Below, piece by piece: positions 1 through 27,000 of a stretch of DNA of 27,297 nt. The DNA is from Odoribacteraceae bacterium (GTDB taxonomy: Bacteria > Bacteroidota > Bacteroidia > Bacteroidales > Marinifilaceae): assembly GCA_031259905.1 (NCBI GenBank), contig JAIRKS010000058.1, positions 1 to 27,297 of the forward strand. The letters are read 5' to 3'. The position numbers were made by a program, and so were the translations under genes. The notes beneath the pieces were generated by a model. It was not told where the DNA came from. It did not search any database and worked only from the letters and a program-made list of their open reading frames with translations. Numbering within the stretch: the stretch's first letter is position 1; each line of letters starts with the position of its first letter.

Positions 1-636
1 GTAGTAGAAGAACTTCCCGCGATCCTCGTCCGGGAAGCTGATCTCGAAGGGCGTTTTCGTGTCGAGGGCCTGGTTGACAAGCTCCTCGACCCGCGTCACG
101 GGTTTGTCGGAGAGCGCCCAGCGGAGGAAGGCGGCGTGTTGCCCGCGGGGTTTTCTTTTCCTGGTAATGATGCCGTGAGCGCTCTCGCTGCCGAAGTGCA
201 CCCTGATCACGCGCATACGGGACGTGTCGGCGCGTGACGCCGGGTGTTTCTCGGCGACGGGGGCACGTTGCCGCGGGCCGTCGAAGCGCTCCGGCATGGC
301 CATGCGCTGGAGATCGCCGTTGGTGACGAGCGGGTTATCCTTCAGGAATCCCTTGTAGAGTTGCCTGTACGCGGCCTTTACCTTTCGCTCTTCCTGCTGC
401 ACGTCGAACGTGGCCAGCGGGGTGCGCGTCGACTCGTTGGCCCACGCGTCGAACGCCTCGACATAGCTCTCGTCCAGCGGCATGAAGACGTCCGTGATCC
501 ACTTTTCCTGGGCGCTTCCCTTCCCGAATCCCATCCTCTCCATGTTTCCCGGCGCGAGGAGGTACTTGACGCTTTGCTCTATCTGCTGGTTGAATTCCAG
601 TCGTTTCGTTTTTACCCAATCTGCTTCTCTTGCCAT
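1..636 (-). CDS. Conserved hypothetical protein, 3' end runs off the window (absent from the ORF track)
   Basis: Hand translation from ATG (cat at 634-636) is open for 212 codons to position 1: MAREADWVKTKRLEF...NPLVTNGDLQRMAMP...RKPRGQHAAFLRWALSDKPVTRVEELVNQALDTKTPFEISFPDEDRGKFFYY. It has an A-rich Bacteroidota-type pre-start (ACATTAAAAACAGAATAGTC) and GC-rich third codon positions. Confidence 0.85.
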   Translation of the reverse strand, partial: MAREADWVKTKRLEFNQQIEQSVKYLLAPGNMERMGFGKGSAQEKWITDVFMPLDESYVEAFDAWANESTRTPLATFDVQQEERKVKAAYRQLYKGFLKDNPLVTNGDLQRMAMPERFDGPRQRAPVAEKHPASRADTSRMRVIRVHFGSESAHGIITRKRKPRGQHAAFLRWALSDKPVTRVEELVNQALDTKTPFEISFPDEDRGKFFYY

Positions 637-662
637 GACTATTCTGTTTTTAATGTTTCGGC

Positions 663-686
663 GGGCAGGGATATGGCTCCCTGCCC
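663..686. other. Perfect 9-bp stem-loop in the putative 5' leader of the 1-636 gene
   Basis: GGGCAGGGA (663-671), 6-nt loop, TCCCTGCCC (678-686). Confidence 0.6.
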
Positions 687-692
687 TTGATG

Positions 693-923
693 TTTCTACT
701 TCCCCTCTTTCTCTTTCTACTTCAACCGATCACTTTTCTCCTTCGACCGGTCGCTTTTTTACTTAAACAATTCATCCTTTTCGTTCGACCGGTCACTTTT
801 TTACTTAAACAATCTATCCTTCGAGTTCGACCGATTCTCTTTCTACTTCAACCGGTTTCTTTTCGTCTGCAAAGGTATGGTTATTTCGTTCGACATTCCA
901 AATATTTCAACCGATATTTTTTT
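693..923. repeat. Degenerate 21-bp tandem array 1a (pyrimidine-rich on +), 11 in-phase units with the last three heavily decayed
   Basis: Units start at 693, 714, 735, 756, 777, 798, 819 and 840, for example TTTCTACTTCAACCGATCACT, TTTCTCCTTCGACCGGTCGCT and TTTTTACTTAAACAATTCATC. They translate on + as heptads FLLQPIT/FLLRPVA/FLLKQFI. Confidence 0.85.
870..902 (-). promoter_or_regulatory. Bacteroidota primary-sigma promoter (TTTG-N21-TAnnTTTG) pointing at the 1-636 gene
   Basis: Minus strand reads TTTG (902-899), a 21-nt spacer, then TACCTTTG (877-870) followed by CA. This is an exact match to the established Bacteroides -33/-7 consensus TTTG-N19-21-TAnnTTTG. Confidence 0.75.
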
Positions 924-1028
924 CCGGGAGCTCCCAAAATAATTTCGGGAGCTCCCAATTTTATTTTGGGAGCTCCCAAAATCATTTTGGGAGCTCCCAA
1001 TCTTATTTTGGGAGCTCCCAAAATTTTT
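924..1028. repeat. Array 1b: five tandem 21-bp palindromic units (core GGGAGCTCCC)
   Basis: Units start at 924, 945, 966, 987 and 1008. ATTTTGGGAGCTCCCAAAAT (963-982 and 1005-1024) is a perfect 20-bp palindrome. Confidence 0.95.
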
Positions 1029-1039
1029 TGTGGAATACA

Positions 1040-1123
1040 AAAAGAGGGTGGGAGTAATAGAAATCTCCAATGCTGAACGAGAAAAGAGGATGGGAGTAAT
1101 AGAAATCCCCGGTGGTGAACGAG
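1040..1123. repeat. Array 1c: two 42-bp direct repeats
   Basis: AAAAGAGGGTGGGAGTAATAGAAATCTCCAATGCTGAACGAG (1040-1081) versus AAAAGAGGATGGGAGTAATAGAAATCCCCGGTGGTGAACGAG (1082-1123). Confidence 0.9.
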
Positions 1124-2097: not shown

Positions 2098-4025
2098 GCG
2101 TCATTTTTCTCTCCTGATTCGGCTGCCTCGAGTTGGTCTTTCAAGGCGGCCAGCCCGGTGATGTCGCCCAGCGTGGTCTTCTCCAGCTTCTCTTTCACCC
2201 TCCTGACGGCTCTTTTCGTGGCGATGGCTTCCTCGCTTCGCTTGCTTCTCTCGACGGACTTGTGTTCGTCCTCGAAGACGCGCGAGTGGGAGAGGATGAT
2301 CCGCTTGTTGCTCTTGTTGAACTCGATCACCTTGAAGGGCAATTTCTCGTCGACCTTCGCCTGCGTCCCGTTGGCTTTCATCAGGTGGCGCGGCGTGGCG
2401 AATCCCTCGACGCCGTACGGTAAGGCGATGACCGCGCCCTTGTCGTACATCTCGGTGATGATCCCCTCGTAGATGGAGTCGAGCTTGAATACCGTCTCGA
2501 AGACGTCCCACGGGTTCTCTTCCAGCTGCTTGTGGCCGAGGCTGAGGCGCCGGTTGTCCTTGTCTATCTCGAGCACGATCACGTCGATGACCGCCCCGGC
2601 GTGGGTGAACTCGGCCGGGTGCTTCACTTTCCTCGTCCACGAGAGGTCGGAGATGTGAATCAGGCCGTCAACGCCCTCCTCGATCTCGACGAAGACACCG
2701 AAGTTGGTGAAGTTACGCACCGTGGCGACGTGCCTGCTACCGATGCCGTACTTCTCCTCGATGTTCTGCCACGGGTCTTTCTTCAGCTGCTTGATGCCGA
2801 GGGACATTTTCCGCTCGTCCCTGTCAAGGGTGAGGATGAGGGCCTCCACCTCGTCGCCGACCTTCATAAACTCCTGCGCCGAGCGCAAGTGCTGTGACCA
2901 TGACATTTCCGAGACGTGTATCAGGCCTTCCACGCCGGGGGCGATCTCCACGAACGCGCCGTAGTCGGCCATCACGACGACTTTTCCTTTTACCTTGTCG
3001 CCCACCTTCAAGTCACGGCTCAAGGCGTCCCACGGGTGCGGCGTGAGCTGCTTCAACCCGAGGGCGATGCGCTTCTTTTCGTCGTCGAAGTCGAGGATCA
3101 CGACGTTCAGTTTCTGATCCAGCTCGACGACCTCCTCCGGGTGGTTCACGCGGCCCCACGAAAGGTCGGTGATGTGCACCAGCCCGTCGACGCCGCCCAG
3201 GTCCACGAAGACGCCGTAGGAGGTAATGTTCTTGACGGTGCCTTCCAGCACTTGTCCTTTTTCCAGTTTCGAGATGATTTCTCTCTTTTGCAGCTCCAGC
3301 TCGGCCTCGATCAGTGCCTTGTGGGAAACCACCACGTTCTTGTACTCCTGGTTAATCTTCACCACTTTAAATTCCATCGTCTTGCCCACGTAAACGTCGT
3401 AGTCGCGAATCGGCTTCACGTCGATTTGCGATCCCGGCAGGAAGGCCTCGATGCCGAAGACATCGACGATCATGCCGCCTTTCGTGCGACATTTCACCAG
3501 GCCCTTGATGATTTCCTCGTTTTCGAGGGCCGAGTTGACGCGGCTCCAGCTTTGCAACGCCCTCGCTTTCTTGTGCGAGAGCAAGAGCTGGCCTTTTTTG
3601 TCTTCTTGCGTCTCGACGTACACCTCGACGGTGTCGCCGACTTTCAGGTCAGGGTTGTAGCGGAATTCGTTCAGCGAGATGATGCCGTCCGACTTGAAGC
3701 CGATGTTCACGACGACTTCTCTCTTGTTCATCGAGATGACGCGGCCGTTCACGACCTCTTTTTCCGTGACGGAGGCGAGGGTGTCGGTGTACCGCGTCGC
3801 GAGGGTTTCCCGTTCTTCCGCGGGGATGAGCGTGTTTTGCGCGTAGGCGTCCCAGTCGAACTCGGTGTCGGGCGCCTGGGTGTGCACCCGCGGCTTTTTC
3901 TCGATCTTGACCCGGACGCGCTTTTTCTCTTCTACCGGTGCCGTTTCCTGTTGTACCGGCGCTTGTTCTTCCAGCTGTCCCGCGACGTCGCTTTGCAGCT
4001 GCTCGTTGGTTGGTTCTGTTGTCAT
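2094..4025 (-). CDS. rpsA: 30S ribosomal protein S1
   Basis: Six S1 repeats (e.g. GVFVDLGGVDGLVHITDLSW, GAFVEIAPGVEGLIHVSEMSW), the Bacteroidota FDWDAY motif and a C-terminal KTTLGDI motif. Confidence 0.98.
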   Translation of the reverse strand: MTTEPTNEQLQSDVAGQLEEQAPVQQETAPVEEKKRVRVKIEKKPRVHTQAPDTEFDWDAYAQNTLIPAEERETLATRYTDTLASVTEKEVVNGRVISMNKREVVVNIGFKSDGIISLNEFRYNPDLKVGDTVEVYVETQEDKKGQLLLSHKKARALQSWSRVNSALENEEIIKGLVKCRTKGGMIVDVFGIEAFLPGSQIDVKPIRDYDVYVGKTMEFKVVKINQEYKNVVVSHKALIEAELELQKREIISKLEKGQVLEGTVKNITSYGVFVDLGGVDGLVHITDLSWGRVNHPEEVVELDQKLNVVILDFDDEKKRIALGLKQLTPHPWDALSRDLKVGDKVKGKVVVMADYGAFVEIAPGVEGLIHVSEMSWSQHLRSAQEFMKVGDEVEALILTLDRDERKMSLGIKQLKKDPWQNIEEKYGIGSRHVATVRNFTNFGVFVEIEEGVDGLIHISDLSWTRKVKHPAEFTHAGAVIDVIVLEIDKDNRRLSLGHKQLEENPWDVFETVFKLDSIYEGIITEMYDKGAVIALPYGVEGFATPRHLMKANGTQAKVDEKLPFKVIEFNKSNKRIILSHSRVFEDEHKSVERSKRSEEAIATKRAVRRVKEKLEKTTLGDITGLAALKDQLEAAESGEKNDA

Positions 4026-4083
4026 AAATTCAGTTGTTTACAATTTAATAAATCAGACATTATGTTTTGAAGTGATAATGACG

Positions 4084-4091
4084 CGAATGTA
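4084..4091 (-). promoter_or_regulatory. Possible -7 element for rpsA (TACATTCG)
   Basis: One mismatch to TAnnTTTG, about 60 nt upstream of the start, with no clear -33 box. Confidence 0.35.
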
Positions 4092-4243
4092 CGAATAAAT
4101 CTTCACTCCGCGGCGCGTTCCCGGATATTTCCGGCGAGGGGACGCGGGAACGCGAGCGGTCGCGCGAGGCCGGCGGGCATTGCCCGTGATAAAAAAAATA
4201 GCGCGTGGTGGCATTTTACGCGTCGAGGTGGGAAAAAATACCG

Positions 4244-4251
4244 TACATTTA
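4244..4251 (+). promoter_or_regulatory. Possible -7 element for the dcw operon (TACATTTA)
   Basis: One mismatch to TAnnTTTG, 24 nt upstream of the mraZ ATG. It shares CGTACATT with the divergent rpsA candidate. Confidence 0.4.
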
Positions 4252-4275
4252 CCTCGTGGAAATTAACACGATCAC

Positions 4276-4752
4276 ATGGTAGCTTTTGTCGGAGAATATA
4301 CATGTAAATTAGACCATAAGGGAAGAATGGTAGTCCCCGTGGCGATCCGTAAGGCATTATCGGAGGCCGGGGAAAGCGCCCTCGTGCTGCAACGGAACTT
4401 CCATCACGACTGTATTAACGTCTACGCGAAGGCCCAATGGATCAAGATGCTATCCGGCTTCCAAACGTCGCACTCCGTGCTGAGCGAGCGCGAGTCGAGC
4501 TTTATCCGGGAGTTTAACCGGGGAAGCGCCGAGGTGGAGCCGGACGAATCGTCGGGACGGATATTGATCCCGCGCAAGTTGCTCGACCGGATCGGGGCAA
4601 GGGACGAGGTGGTGCTCGTGGGGCAGGGCCTGAAACTCGAGATCTGGGAGAAGAAACGCTACGAGGAGGTCGAGTGCCCGCCGGGGGATACCGCCCGGAT
4701 GGCGTCCGAGATGCACGAACGATTGTGTCGCCCGCGAGACGAACGTCCGTGA
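4276..4752 (+). CDS. mraZ: Division/cell-wall cluster transcriptional repressor MraZ
   Basis: Two SpoVT/AbrB-type motifs (LDHKGRMVVP, DESSGRILIP), C-terminal LEIW, and first position in the dcw cluster. Confidence 0.93.
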   Translation: MVAFVGEYTCKLDHKGRMVVPVAIRKALSEAGESALVLQRNFHHDCINVYAKAQWIKMLSGFQTSHSVLSERESSFIREFNRGSAEVEPDESSGRILIPRKLLDRIGARDEVVLVGQGLKLEIWEKKRYEEVECPPGDTARMASEMHERLCRPRDERP

Positions 4753-10926: not shown

Positions 10927-12285
10927 ATGATGAAGCTGGTTATTCTTGGAGGCGGGGAGAGCGGCATCGGCGCGGCGCGACTGGGATCGCGGTTGGGCCA
11001 CGCGGTATTCTTGTCGGACAGCGGGCCGCTGACCGGGGGCGCCCGCCACGCGCTGGAAGAGATGCAGGTGGAGTTCGAGGAGGGGGGGCACGACGCGAGG
11101 CGGGTCATGCAGGCGGACCTGGTCGTGAAAAGCCCTGGAATTCCCGACACCCTCCCGCTGGTCGTCTCCCTCCGGGCGGCGGGCGTGGAGGTGATCTCGG
11201 AAATAGAGTTCGCCGGTCGCCACACGGACGCGGCGATGTACTGCATCACGGGGAGTAACGGGAAAACCACCACCACCTTATTATTATACCACCTGCTCCG
11301 GCGCGGCGGACTGGACGTCGGCCTGGCGGGGAACGTCGGGCACAGCCTGGCCGCGCGCGTGGCGACAGACCCTCACGCGGCCTACGTGGTAGAGCTTTCC
11401 AGCTTCCAGCTGGACGGGATGTCCCGTTTCCATTGCGACACGGCCATCTTGACGAACATCACGCCGGACCACCTCGATCGCTACGGCGGGCGGTTCGAGA
11501 GATACGTCGACTCCAAGTTCCGGGTACTCCAGAACGCCCGCCCGCGCGATCTTTTCATCTACGGCACGGATTGCGACGCGGTACGCGAGCGGGTGTCCCG
11601 GACGCGGATCGTCCCCCGCGCGGCGCGCTTCACGTGTCACGACGATCCCGGCCAGGACGCGTGGATGTCGGGCGATCGCCTGCTGGCGCGTCACGAGGGT
11701 CGTCTCTTCTCGATCGACCGGCGGGAGATCTCGATACAGGGTCGCCACAACATGTACAACGCCCAGGCGGCCGTACTGGCGGCGATGAAGGCGGGCGTGG
11801 GGGACGACGACCTGCGGCGCGGCCTGGCGACCTTCCCCCCGGTGGAGCATCGCCTGGAGCGGGTGGCGGTCGTGAACGGCGTCACGTACATCAACGATTC
11901 GAAGGCGACCAACGTCGATTCCGCCCTGTACGCCCTGGAGAGCGTCCCCCCGCCGGTGATCTGGATCGCCGGGGGCACCGACAAGGGGAACGACTACGCG
12001 GCGTTGAAGGCGCTGGCGCGGGAAAAGGTAAAGCTGCTCGTCTGCATGGGAGTGGACAACGCCCGCCTGTCGCGCGAGTTTTCCGGCACGACCGAGGTCG
12101 TCGACACGCGCGGGCTGGACGAGGCGATGGCCGTCGTCGCGGCGCGCGTCGTGCCCGGGGACACGGTGCTCCTCTCCCCGTGCTGCGCGAGCTTCGACCT
12201 CTTCAGGAACTACGAGGATCGCGGGCGGCAATTCAAGGAAAAAGTAATGAATCTAACGCGACAGGATAATGGAAGAGATCATTAA
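10927..12285 (+). CDS. murD: UDP-N-acetylmuramoyl-L-alanine:D-glutamate ligase MurD
   Basis: LGGGESG, VKSPGI, ITGSNGKTTT, ELSSFQL, NITPDHLDRY, NDSKATN and LLSPCCASFDLF. Confidence 0.97.
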   Translation: MMKLVILGGGESGIGAARLGSRLGHAVFLSDSGPLTGGARHALEEMQVEFEEGGHDARRVMQADLVVKSPGIPDTLPLVVSLRAAGVEVISEIEFAGRHTDAAMYCITGSNGKTTTTLLLYHLLRRGGLDVGLAGNVGHSLAARVATDPHAAYVVELSSFQLDGMSRFHCDTAILTNITPDHLDRYGGRFERYVDSKFRVLQNARPRDLFIYGTDCDAVRERVSRTRIVPRAARFTCHDDPGQDAWMSGDRLLARHEGRLFSIDRREISIQGRHNMYNAQAAVLAAMKAGVGDDDLRRGLATFPPVEHRLERVAVVNGVTYINDSKATNVDSALYALESVPPPVIWIAGGTDKGNDYAALKALAREKVKLLVCMGVDNARLSREFSGTTEVVDTRGLDEAMAVVAARVVPGDTVLLSPCCASFDLFRNYEDRGRQFKEKVMNLTRQDNGRDH

Positions 12286-13951
12286 CCGGGCAAAATACTA
12301 CCTCGTCCCGAAGGGTGACAAGATCCTCTGGGTGATGATCCTCGCGTTGATGCTGATCTCGCTGGTCGCGGTCTTCTCGTCCACCGGGAAGCTCGCCTAC
12401 GTCAGCATGGAGGGGGACACGACGCGCCCGTTGTTCAAGCAAGCCGGGCTATTCGTCGCGGCCCTTGGCGTGATGCTCTTCGTTCAATCGATGCACTACA
12501 AGTACTTCATCTCGCTGGCCACGCCCGCGTGCTGGCTGGCGCTGCTGTTGCTGGCGTTGGCGCTCGTGATCTCGCTCCTCGACAATTCGGCGCGTGTCAA
12601 CGATACGGCCCGCTGGATAAAAATCCCCATCCTCGGCAGCATCCAGCCGTCGGAGGTTGCCAAGCTGGGGCTCGTGATGTACATGGCGCGGGTGCTCGCG
12701 TTCGAGCAACTGTCCGATCGCTGTTCCAACCGCGTGCTGTTCAAGATAGCGTTAATCTTCCTTCCCCCGTGGATACTGATCTTCAATGAAAACGCCTCGA
12801 CGTCCGTGCTCCTGGCGCTGGTCTGCGCGGTGATGCTATTCGTCGGGCGCTTGCACTGGAAACCGCTGCTGCTGACGTACGCCGTCGCCGCGGCGCTCGC
12901 CACTGTCTTCCTGGTGACGATCATGAACACCGACAAGCTCGACCACATCGCGCGCGTGGTCACCATCAAGGAGCGGTTGAACAACAAGAACCCCTTCCAG
13001 GCTAACCAGGCCAAGATTGCCATCGCGCGCGGCGGCCTCCACGGCGTCGGGCCGGGGCGCAGCGTGCAGCGGAATTTCCTGCCGAACCCGCAGTCGGATT
13101 ACATCTACGCGATCATCGTCGAGGAGTACGGGCTGCTCGTCGGCGGCATACCGGTGCTGCTCATCTACGCGATCATCCTGTACCGCGTCGGCACGATCGC
13201 CCGGCGATGCACGCGGGCGTTCCCGGCGCTACTCGTGACGGGGCTGGGGATCACGATTTTTCTCCAGGCGATCATACACGTGTGCGTGTGTACCGGCGTT
13301 TTCCCCGTGACCGGCCAGCCCTTGCCGCTGGTGAGCACCGGCGGCACGTCCATCCTCCTCCTCGGCGTCGCCTTCGGGATGATCCAAAGCGTCGCGCACA
13401 CCTTCTCGGACGCCGGGCAACAGGAGGAACGCGAACGACAGGCACGACGAAAAGCCGCCAGGAGAAGGGAAATCGAACGACTGGAACGAGAGGAGGACGA
13501 CGAAACGCTATATTTTCAGCGGCTTTCCCTGAATTTTGAGCGCCCTTTACAAACTTTGAAATGCCTTGTACAAAGTTTGAAATGCCCTTTACAAAGTTTG
13601 AAATGCCCTTTACAAAGTTTGAAATGCCTTGTACAAACTTTGAAATGCCTTGTTCAAATTTCTAGATGCCTTGTCAGAAATTTGAAATGCCCTTTACAAA
13701 GTTTGAAATGCCTTGTACAAACTTTGAAATGCCCTTTACAAACTTTGAAATGCCTTGTACAAACTTTGAAATGCCCCTGTACAAAGTTTGAAATGCCCTT
13801 TACAAAGTTTGAAATGCCTTGTACAAACTTTGAAATGCCCTGTACAAAGTGTGAAATGCCCTGTACAAAGTTTGAAATATCCCCCCGTGTCGCCCGTTTG
13901 GCGGCGCGTGAATGGCCGTGGCGCCTGACCCTTTTACCCTTTAACGCGTGA
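12269..13951 (+). CDS. ftsW: Peptidoglycan glycosyltransferase FtsW (SEDS family) with an in-frame repeat-derived C-terminal extension
   Basis: ARWIKIP, IQPSEVAK, FQANQAKIAIARGG, LPNPQSDYIYAII and GQPLPLVSTGGTS. The membrane core ends near 13400, but there is no in-frame stop until TGA at 13949-13951. Confidence 0.93.
   Translation: MEEIINRAKYYLVPKGDKILWVMILALMLISLVAVFSSTGKLAYVSMEGDTTRPLFKQAGLFVAALGVMLFVQSMHYKYFISLATPACWLALLLLALALVISLLDNSARVNDTARWIKIPILGSIQPSEVAKLGLVMYMARVLAFEQLSDRCSNRVLFKIALIFLPPWILIFNENASTSVLLALVCAVMLFVGRLHWKPLLLTYAVAAALATVFLVTIMNTDKLDHIARVVTIKERLNNKNPFQANQAKIAIARGGLHGVGPGRSVQRNFLPNPQSDYIYAIIVEEYGLLVGGIPVLLIYAIILYRVGTIARRCTRAFPALLVTGLGITIFLQAIIHVCVCTGVFPVTGQPLPLVSTGGTSILLLGVAFGMIQSVAHTFSDAGQQEERERQARRKAARRREIERLEREEDDETLYFQRLSLNFERPLQTLKCLVQSLKCPLQSLKCPLQSLKCLVQTLKCLVQISRCLVRNLKCPLQSLKCLVQTLKCPLQTLKCLVQTLKCPCTKFEMPFTKFEMPCTNFEMPCTKCEMPCTKFEISPRVARLAAREWPWRLTLLPFNA
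13534..13878. repeat. Array 2: 16 tandem 21-bp units, consensus TTTGAAATGCC(T/C)T(G/T)TACAAA(G/C)
   Basis: Units start at 13534 (degenerate), 13555, 13576 and so on to 13850, with a partial unit at 13871. The unit at 13765-13786 is 22 bp. Units contain TTGTACAA and CAAA-S-TTTG dyads. Confidence 0.97.
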
Positions 13952-26754: not shown

Positions 26755-26964
26755 GTGTACCACCGCCTCGCCATCATGTCCCACCGCCCCGCCACCATGT
26801 ACCACCGCCCCGCCACCATGTTCCATCGCCCCGCCACCATGTTCCACTGCCCCGCCATCATGTACCACCGCCCCGCCACCATGTTCCACCACCCCGCCAT
26901 CATGTACCACCACCCCGCCATCATGTACCACCGCCCCGCCACCATGTTCCATCGTCCCGCCATC
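26755..26964. repeat. Array 3: ten tandem 21-bp C-rich units, consensus ATGT(A/T)CCACCGCCCCGCCA(C/T)C
   Basis: Units start at 26755, 26776, 26797 and so on to 26944, all exactly 21 bp. The array lies between the convergent dacB and kinase genes. Confidence 0.97.
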
Positions 26965-27000
26965 ATGTTTTTCCGGGGTGGTGGGGACGTGCCGTGTCGT

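Follow-up and report, generated by a model that had tools for sequence, protein, structure and literature searches.

The 27,297-bp stretch of DNA analyzed here (hereafter the window) is contig JAIRKS010000058.1 of the Odoribacteraceae assembly GCA_031259905.1, corresponding to contig C78 of a termite-gut metagenome-assembled genome (MAG) that we refer to as G000 (235 contigs, 64.8% complete, 60.6% G+C, 1.87 Mb). At the left end of the window, on the minus strand, lies a gene coding for a member of an unannotated protein family of about 225 amino acids, which is directly preceded by tandem arrays with a strict 21-bp period. Arrays of this type are tied to this one family across four phyla of one habitat, a coupling which is not described in the literature that we searched, the array class itself being known. 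We tentatively lean towards a reading in which the gene forms a self-contained, moron-like cassette with period-locked arrays acting in cis, as this is the simplest account of the conserved 5' position of the arrays.

A scan for the family in one genome per species retrieved 212 relatives, and our locus analyses cover the best 80 of these (L021-L100), all of which stem from termite-gut MAGs of Bacteroidales, Planctomycetaceae and Treponema and from the cultured verrucomicrobium Geminisphaera colitermitum TAV2. An array with a period of 21, 42, 63 or 84 bp was present within a few hundred bp upstream in 62 of the 67 testable homologues among the 80 loci, in 10 of 11 homologues in relatives and in all four testable paralogues of G000. 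The expectation of the original prediction, namely that 21-bp periodic DNA would recur upstream of homologues in other genomes, was thus borne out. By comparison, 8-10% of all genes carry an upstream array in the array-rich G000, and the flanks of the 80 loci contain 9 short arrays in 360 kb; at a rate of 10%, the probability of finding at least 62 of 67 is 6e-56. The arrays (median length, 226 bp) lie on the upstream side of the gene only, with a median gap of 93 bp to the matched portion of the gene and AT-rich spacers of about 20 to 150 nt to the ATG. This linkage is kept in Bacteroidales, Planctomycetaceae, Treponema and G. colitermitum TAV2, down to ~30% protein identity, and the dominance of period 21 in the Tandem Repeats Finder (TRF) output holds at the homologue loci as well. 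At the locus of G. colitermitum TAV2 (L097, contig NZ_ABEA03000045.1), the gene occupies 3989-4654 and its arrays occupy 3261-3543. Among the TRF rows of these 80 loci, periods 7 (47 rows) and 14 (27 rows) were also unusually frequent next to period 21 (95 rows). In the homologues, the spacers that separate the array from the ATG showed no conserved hairpin or motif, and the 80 loci showed no conserved neighbor or operon partner, the neighbors including SusC-like, Fib_succ_major, leucine-rich repeat (LRR) and sigma-factor genes.

All five genomes of the window's genus hold the protein family in multiple copies (2-13 matches per genome). Within the same bacterial family, a Culturomica-labelled MAG of one other genus gave 22 matches and 18 further genera gave none. 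Searches of 16 additional families of the order were negative, as were those of 400 evenly drawn Bacteroidota genomes, save for one weak match in the latter. A profile search against 1.8 billion cluster representatives returned 553 matches at E <= 1e-30, every named one being a 'hypothetical protein', while family members had no match in Pfam, PHROGs, NCBIfam or PADLOC, and the family profile had none among PDB sequences.

The sequence of the arrays is uncoupled from that of the proteins. Across 57 loci, unit similarity did not follow protein identity (Spearman -0.03), and the units of locus pairs with more than 80% protein identity were mostly unrelated. The L055 and L058 paralogues of the Culturomica-labelled MAG, for instance, are identical after residue 5 and stand behind unrelated arrays (8.5 copies of CCGGAAAGTTTCCCGTAGCCA vs 4.7 copies of ATTAATGTCGGCGAGAGGCTC). 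Unrelated units behind near-identical proteins led us to reject a paralogue-specific operator code. The features that are kept are the occurrence of an array, the side of the gene on which it lies and the length of its period.

DNA homology between paralogues begins ~48 nt before the ATG and stops past a shared intrinsic terminator, the conserved unit therefore being a monocistronic cassette of about 0.95 kb, and a third paralogue of the Culturomica-labelled MAG is a mosaic that combines the N-terminal domain of one copy with the C-terminal domain of another. At five loci of this MAG (L052, L055, L058, L062 and L071), the cassette follows a paralogous Fib_succ_major-domain gene that ends ~30 bp before the array; the two genes seem to have been duplicated jointly, with replacement of the intervening array. 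In a congener (G003), the whole cassette is absent at the locus of a 78%-identical orthologue of the gene that lies upstream of the cassette in the window, a metallo-beta-lactamase (MBL)-fold gene named rnz in the original prediction. We place this MBL-fold gene outside the module, because its orthologue in the congener is followed by neither arrays nor a family gene. The 800-bp region downstream of the orthologue (L111, G003:C261, ~800-1500) contains no 21-bp arrays and carries long GC-rich, hairpin-forming inverted repeats, a different repeat type resembling repetitive extragenic palindromes (REP) or miniature inverted-repeat transposable elements (MITE); the orthologue match has one in-frame TGA.

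These boundaries, together with the near-identical genes behind unrelated arrays, the mosaic paralogue and the absence at the congener's locus, would also suit a mobile or gene-converting 0.95-kb cassette (short leader, gene and terminator), for which the arrays would serve as preferred landing sites, as recombination boundaries or as amplified target duplications. Recombination boundaries of this kind have a counterpart in trypanosomes, whose VSG genes are preceded by 70-bp repeats. The 7-22 family copies per genome in variable contexts agree with such mobility, and arrays standing alone could be empty sites. We nevertheless judge this account to be rather improbable: no recombinase, target duplications or conserved neighbor was identified, nor were terminal inverted repeats, for which no systematic search was made; gene conversion alone accounts for the homology boundaries; and unit families shared with the cassettes are found at many loci where only an array is present, which argues that the arrays spread without the gene.

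Genome-wide, TRF reported 255 rows of period 21, 116 of period 42, 34 of period 63 and 16 of period 84 in G000, compared to 3 rows of period 20 and 21 rows of period 22. After merging, these correspond to 199-253 loci covering 2.2-2.7% of the genome, and clustering of the 255 period-21 consensus units with up to 5 mismatches yielded 125 clusters. About three quarters of the arrays are situated at contig ends (145-148 within about 100-150 bp of one), and they appear to be a major reason why G000 and its congeners are fragmented and of low completeness. The family genes on contigs C189, C11 and C131 have their 5' ends cut off by contig breaks. All 51 interior arrays sit between called genes, although a few open frames read through arrays. 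As a whole, the arrays show no strand-specific composition bias (purine fraction 0.52, p = 0.13), so that the purine richness of the gene-proximal array in the window is a local feature. Universal dyad symmetry of the units was rejected as well, perfect palindromes of at least 8 bp being present in 35% of units vs 19% after shuffling, and phased A-tracts are only partially a general feature (47% vs 27%); the A-tract phasing analysis detected no 10.5-bp sub-period in the arrays.

In the cis reading that we tentatively prefer, the module would consist of at least one strict 21-bp (or 42-, 63- or 84-bp) tandem array, an AT-rich spacer of 20-150 nt, a monocistronic gene of ~225 codons and a terminator, with the arrays acting in cis as the upstream control region of the cassette. 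Selection would act on the two-helical-turn period and leave the sequence free, and array sequences would turn over rapidly by slippage, unequal exchange and replacement. At the window locus, decayed repeat units have given rise to a perfect promoter consensus, transcription would start from the element at 870-902, and the proximal array would lie within the leader. The palindromic array might shield the cassette from read-through that originates at the upstream MBL-fold gene, either as an insulator or as a terminator working in both directions. The protein would belong to a phage-related, possibly virion-associated family which, in termite-gut bacteria, has come to be chromosomal, with multiple copies that recombine.

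Several observations speak against this proposal. More than 90% of the arrays in G000 are 'solo', without the family gene, and occur in every intergenic context; the interior arrays comprise 24 in tandem, 18 in convergent and 9 in divergent settings, compared to 842, 110 and 122 for the intergenic background, so that 18 of 51 lie between convergent genes vs 10% expected. Solo arrays in all contexts, convergent genes included, imply that a purely promoter-linked role is insufficient. Perfect promoter motifs are likewise not enriched near arrays genome-wide (3 of 22), and we therefore rejected the idea that arrays are general carriers of consensus promoters. Furthermore, the spacer measures just 20-30 nt in several homologues, where the arrays may thus be transcribed or contain the promoter, and the position of arrays relative to the start site is not uniform. 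Finally, among the genomes sampled, arrays are confined to those that hold the family, which fits a role of the protein in trans at least equally well.

The ubiquity of the arrays in G000 could also be taken to indicate selfish or neutral minisatellites that accumulate in permissive upstream regions and are functionless for gene and cell. In this genome, an array lies upstream of 97 genes and downstream of 109, so that neither gene end is favored, every intergenic type is occupied, and the missing strand bias and modest enrichment of palindromes and A-tracts would be in line with neutrality. Outside G000, however, arrays are rare except directly upstream of this family, their placement is kept through divergence to ~30% protein identity in four phyla, and the period is exactly 21 bp or a multiple of it. 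We therefore hold neutral hitch-hiking to be very unlikely.

Tandem repeats of 'constant size, variable sequence' with units of 20-21 nt have been described previously as a class (Subirana & Messeguer, PMC8161180, and the 2020 study cited there), and were proposed either to reflect a protein that polymerizes on DNA and needs a constant repeat size, or to be transcribed into small RNAs; PMC8161180, as read here, names no associated gene. G000 shows all three hallmarks of this class, that is, one dominant length, several unrelated unit families and a non-coding location. The likeness extends to the strict unit of two helical turns, the many unrelated families per genome and the lineage-specific abundance. 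In contrast to the previously described repeats, which were reported from Bacillus and Paenibacillus (PMC8161180), the arrays studied here occur in termite-gut Bacteroidales, Planctomycetes, Spirochaetes and Verrucomicrobia, and are coupled to one gene family, directly upstream of it, in four phyla of one habitat. Such period-locked repeats have been catalogued in many bacteria since 2019-2021 without a named function or gene, and their coupling to one small phage-related family provides a first gene-level handle on an enigmatic repeat class, which the cultured carrier G. colitermitum TAV2 opens to experiment.

The protein is predicted to be soluble and to combine a helical bundle with a fibronectin type III (FN3) domain. 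According to AlphaFold2 models of the whole protein (pLDDT 88) and of its N-terminal domain (pLDDT 89.7), an N-terminal up-down helical bundle (residues 12-111) is followed by a C-terminal seven-stranded FN3 domain, residues 125-235 superposing on known FN3 domains with a Z-score of 10.8 and a root-mean-square deviation (rmsd) of 2.2 Å (Foldseek E = 2.6e-5). Fold searches with the N-terminal domain gave no significant match (best Z 7.6, which is below helical-bundle noise; Foldseek E > 3), those with the whole model and the N-terminal domain returned generic FN3 and helical-bundle matches only, and the ESM Atlas gave 'hypothetical protein' clusters only. No recognizable DNA- or RNA-binding fold emerged from the structure and Pfam comparisons, and neither a transmembrane segment nor a signal-like N-terminus was found. 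The isoelectric point (pI) varies from 5.6 to 9.8 within the family, with a median of 7.7.

Relatives of the protein are encoded on seven uncultivated viral contigs (64-68% G+C), five of them full-length with 30-33% identity; hhalign with two of the full-length viral homologues gave a probability of 99.8% and an E-value of about 1e-28. The presence of full-length homologues in viral contigs indicates that the family is phage-related. Of the five full-length genes, one comes directly after a major-capsid gene and another stands 400 bp upstream of a tape-measure gene; two more have DNA methylases as neighbors, and the fifth is located behind a gene for a DNA helicase. No arrays were found upstream of the viral homologues. 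The GenBank phage collection (50,697 records, tblastn) contained no match to the family, and viral and family proteins had no match among PHROG families at E <= 0.001, nor any relation to a characterized decoration protein. Phage morons and virion accessory proteins of the Ig/FN3 type, such as T5 pb10 and T4 Hoc, combine an anchoring N-terminal domain with an exposed Ig/FN3-like domain. By analogy, the family may be virion-associated, with a helical anchor and an exposed FN3 domain, which we offer as a lead and not as a demonstration. The resemblance to morons and decoration proteins lies in the stand-alone unit of promoter, gene and terminator, in the FN3-like domain and in the location of one viral homologue after a capsid gene and of another before a tape-measure gene; the differences are the lack of any sequence or PHROG relation to named ones, and the presence of chromosomal copies outside prophages, these being the only ones that carry arrays.

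These properties bear on an alternative in which the protein reads or propagates the arrays, either by binding or polymerizing once per 21 bp independently of sequence, or by promoting 21-bp tandem duplication. In such a model, which we consider unlikely, the gene would stand beside an array for autoregulation and co-transfer, as is the case for centromere- and iteron-binding proteins, and solo arrays would be other chromosomal sites. It would explain the co-transfer of gene and array across four phyla with different promoter types, and it agrees with the virtual absence of the family from the 400 other Bacteroidota genomes. Moreover, arrays, including solo ones, were found in each of the seven family-positive genomes sampled, at densities per 10 kb of 1.06 in G000 and of 0.96, 0.91, 0.71, 0.34, 0.33 and ~0.06 in the six others, as opposed to none in 315 kb sampled from 20 genomes of the same bacterial family and order that lack the protein family; this co-occurrence, however, derives from two genera and cross-phylum MAGs, in which kin are not independent. 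The model would also meet the published hypothesis of a protein needing a constant repeat size (PMC8161180), which so far lacks a candidate. If it were true, binding would have to be based on period or shape, or the protein would help to make the arrays.

What stands against such a reader is the canonical FN3 domain and generic helical bundle in place of a DNA-binding fold, the lack of matches in Pfam, NCBIfam, PHROG and PADLOC, the variable charge, the identical proteins behind unrelated arrays, and the full-length phage homologues without arrays, two of them next to structural genes, to which a remote homologue outside the clade that likewise lacks an array can be added. We find it doubtful that the 'constant size, variable sequence' repeats have their missing partner in this protein, which would then be phage-derived and would assemble on DNA, or cause tandem duplication, with a two-helical-turn ruler and little sequence preference; were this so, 21-bp arrays would arise beside the gene wherever the family lands and then spread across the chromosome (~200 arrays, 2-3% of this genome). 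The proposal that the protein is a natural partner of the arrays, put forward in the original prediction, is unlikely in its sequence-reading form, given identical paralogues with unrelated arrays, no binding fold and array-less full-length phage homologues, and the protein probably does not bind its own array in a sequence-specific manner.

Centromere and iteron modules (parC-ParR of R1 and pSK41, tubC-TubR, and iterons with Rep) have phased repeats that lie upstream of a small gene and overlap its promoter, whose product recognizes the repeat sequence by means of a ribbon-helix-helix (RHH), helix-turn-helix (HTH) or winged-helix fold. The arrays and genes analyzed here resemble these modules in that phased repeats about one or two helical turns apart lie directly upstream of a small gene and in that the module is transferred as a unit. 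They differ in the helical-bundle and FN3 architecture, the unrelated arrays of identical proteins, the tens of copies per chromosome and the lack of a motor or origin function nearby. An assignment to this class was rejected on the basis of fold, of repeat-protein co-variation, which is absent as given above, and of adjacent motor or replication functions, of which the 80 loci have none.

Having set these alternatives against the preferred cis-acting cassette, we turn to its anatomy at the window locus (Table 1). All elements that had been proposed from the sequence, namely the 42-mers, the palindromes, the promoter, the purine-rich array, the hairpin and the ATG, were recovered at their positions, with two amendments. 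The series of 'eight purine-rich 21-mers' is indeed purine-rich and in a 21-bp register, but it is heterogeneous, as it comprises five units with a GGTYGAA core (853, 832, 790, 748 and 727) and, between them, two 42-bp super-units. Similarly, the register said to be unbroken is in phase from core 895 to core 727, but slips by 4 nt between cores 912 and 895, that is, inside the promoter spacer. The palindromic units start at 926, 947, 968, 989 and 1010 (plus strand) and are arranged head-to-tail. The gene continues on contig C197, reached via a 119-bp identical overlap, on which its last ~23 codons are located, giving a total of ~235 amino acids. Positions 1-940 recurred, with 9 substitutions and no indels, in an independent Logan assembly built from a DNA run of termite gut, and we therefore conclude that the structure is not an assembly artefact; the palindromes have ~10-fold k-mer depth in that assembly.

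Table 1. Features at the left end of the window and in its immediate upstream neighborhood
Feature	Position	Strand	Remarks
Family gene, first 212 codons	1-636	minus	ATG at 636; frame runs off the window end
A-rich, unstructured translation-initiation region	637-662	minus	From sequence; unpaired in RNA folds
Hairpin (9-bp stem, 6-nt loop) between last repeat unit and start codon	663-686	minus	
Proximal array, 168 bp, 21-bp register	693-860	minus	74% purine on the sense strand
Decayed repeat units (cores 895 and 912) bridging both arrays	861-925	minus	4-nt phase slip
Promoter consensus TTTG-N21-TACCTTTG	870-902	minus	Directed towards the gene, with the ATG 234 nt downstream
Five palindromic 21-bp units with invariant GGGAGCTCCC core	926-1030	none	TRF period 21, 5.0 copies
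Two 42-bp direct repeats, 88% identical, in phase with the palindromes	1040-1081, 1082-1123	minus	
Metallo-beta-lactamase-fold gene (upstream neighbor)	1162-2097	minus	Pfam Lactamase_B_2/Lactamase_B; Lactamase_B_4 (tRNase Z) below cutoff

Bacteroidota primary-sigma promoters were defined as a -33 TTTG and a -7 TAnnTTTG element, 19-21 nt apart and facing a gene. The element at 870-902 conforms to this definition in both sequence match and orientation, and it is the single match to TTTG-N19-21-TAnnTTTG in the window, in which 0.03 would be expected and in which 3 of 100 shuffles reach one match; genome-wide, the consensus has 22 matches in 1.87 Mb, this one among them. The earlier call of a perfect promoter is hence statistically sound. 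Provided that this promoter is used, the proximal array is part of a putative 5' leader of ~230 nt, which is predicted to fold more stably than shuffled sequences (z = -3.0). A scan of the entire window against Rfam at gathering thresholds gave no family. Terminator-like sites are abundant in the first 1,400 positions (11 vs 2.5 expected) and mostly reside within the palindromes, the palindromic array at 926-1030 being terminator-like on both strands and the hairpin at 663-686 on the plus (antisense) strand only. In addition, the cassette ends in an intrinsic terminator of its own, which is the one shared among paralogues.

The palindromes had been suggested to be operators of the downstream gene. 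The GGGAGCTCCC array, however, often together with an array of the GGNCGAA type, recurs without this gene at no fewer than 12 further loci, some of them facing gene 3' ends, and such arrays are therefore not gene-private operators. On contigs C81, C149 and C222, the palindromic array is joined, by a shared junction, to a GGNCGAA-type array resembling the proximal array of the window, and these joint arrays face gene 3' ends or a lipoprotein gene. The palindromic arrays share with REP and bacterial interspersed mosaic elements (BIME) that they are dispersed, intergenic, often placed between convergent genes, hairpin-forming and terminator-like. They differ from them in that they are head-to-tail with up to 13 units and an exact 21-bp period, that no REP-associated transposase context was seen and that they constitute one unit family among many.

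Within the Bacteroidales, a further known system is BrickBuilt of Porphyromonas gingivalis, a minisatellite or MITE with a 23-nt unit, one family and 19 copies (Klein et al. 2015, PMC4596501), for which leader and tail subunits, inverted-repeat ends and internal promoter elements have been reported (PMC4596501). Our arrays are similarly spacerless, intergenic, multi-copy tandem arrays with a unit of about two helical turns, and the conserved junction between arrays on C81, C149 and C222 was compared to the BrickBuilt leader and tail. Unlike BrickBuilt, they have a period of 21 bp, more than 100 unit families in ~200 arrays and linkage to a gene family, and no MITE ends were identified, inverted repeats not having been sought systematically. 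Identity with BrickBuilt was rejected, as this is a single family with a 23-nt unit. A literature search for termite-specific 21-bp repeats yielded nothing relevant.

Additional observations concern arrays elsewhere. The window contains two more arrays of 21-bp period with unrelated units (13542-13878 and 26756-26969), one of the CAGGGCATTTCAAAGTTTGTA type, which is also present at six other loci, and the other of the TGTACCACCGCCCCGCCACCA type; the first of the two arrays is preceded by a cell-division gene (12269-13951), whose open frame extends through it. The array of a distant homologue in a Dysgonamonadaceae-labelled MAG (L033, 3723-3960) has a CGGTCGACCG core that is akin to the GACCGGTCGAAC core of the proximal array in the window, a likeness which may be due to chance or to a recurrent preferred motif. 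In G000, genes for sigma factors of the extracytoplasmic-function (ECF) type have an upstream array in 6 of 25 cases (C115:563-1240, C129:276-836, C134:5565-6146, C151:4747-5538, C64:9352-9996 and C68:1981-2697) compared to 7.4% of all genes (odds ratio 4.1, p = 0.008), and two of these arrays share a unit family (ATTGGCGGCCAAT-type) with the array of the family paralogue on C38. Lastly, the GGNCGAA-type arrays at C149:100-330 and C222:7030-6930 are homogeneous beside the palindromes and decay distally, unit by unit and with the 21-bp register kept, into GC-rich unique sequence, which suggests polar growth or homogenization of arrays from one end.

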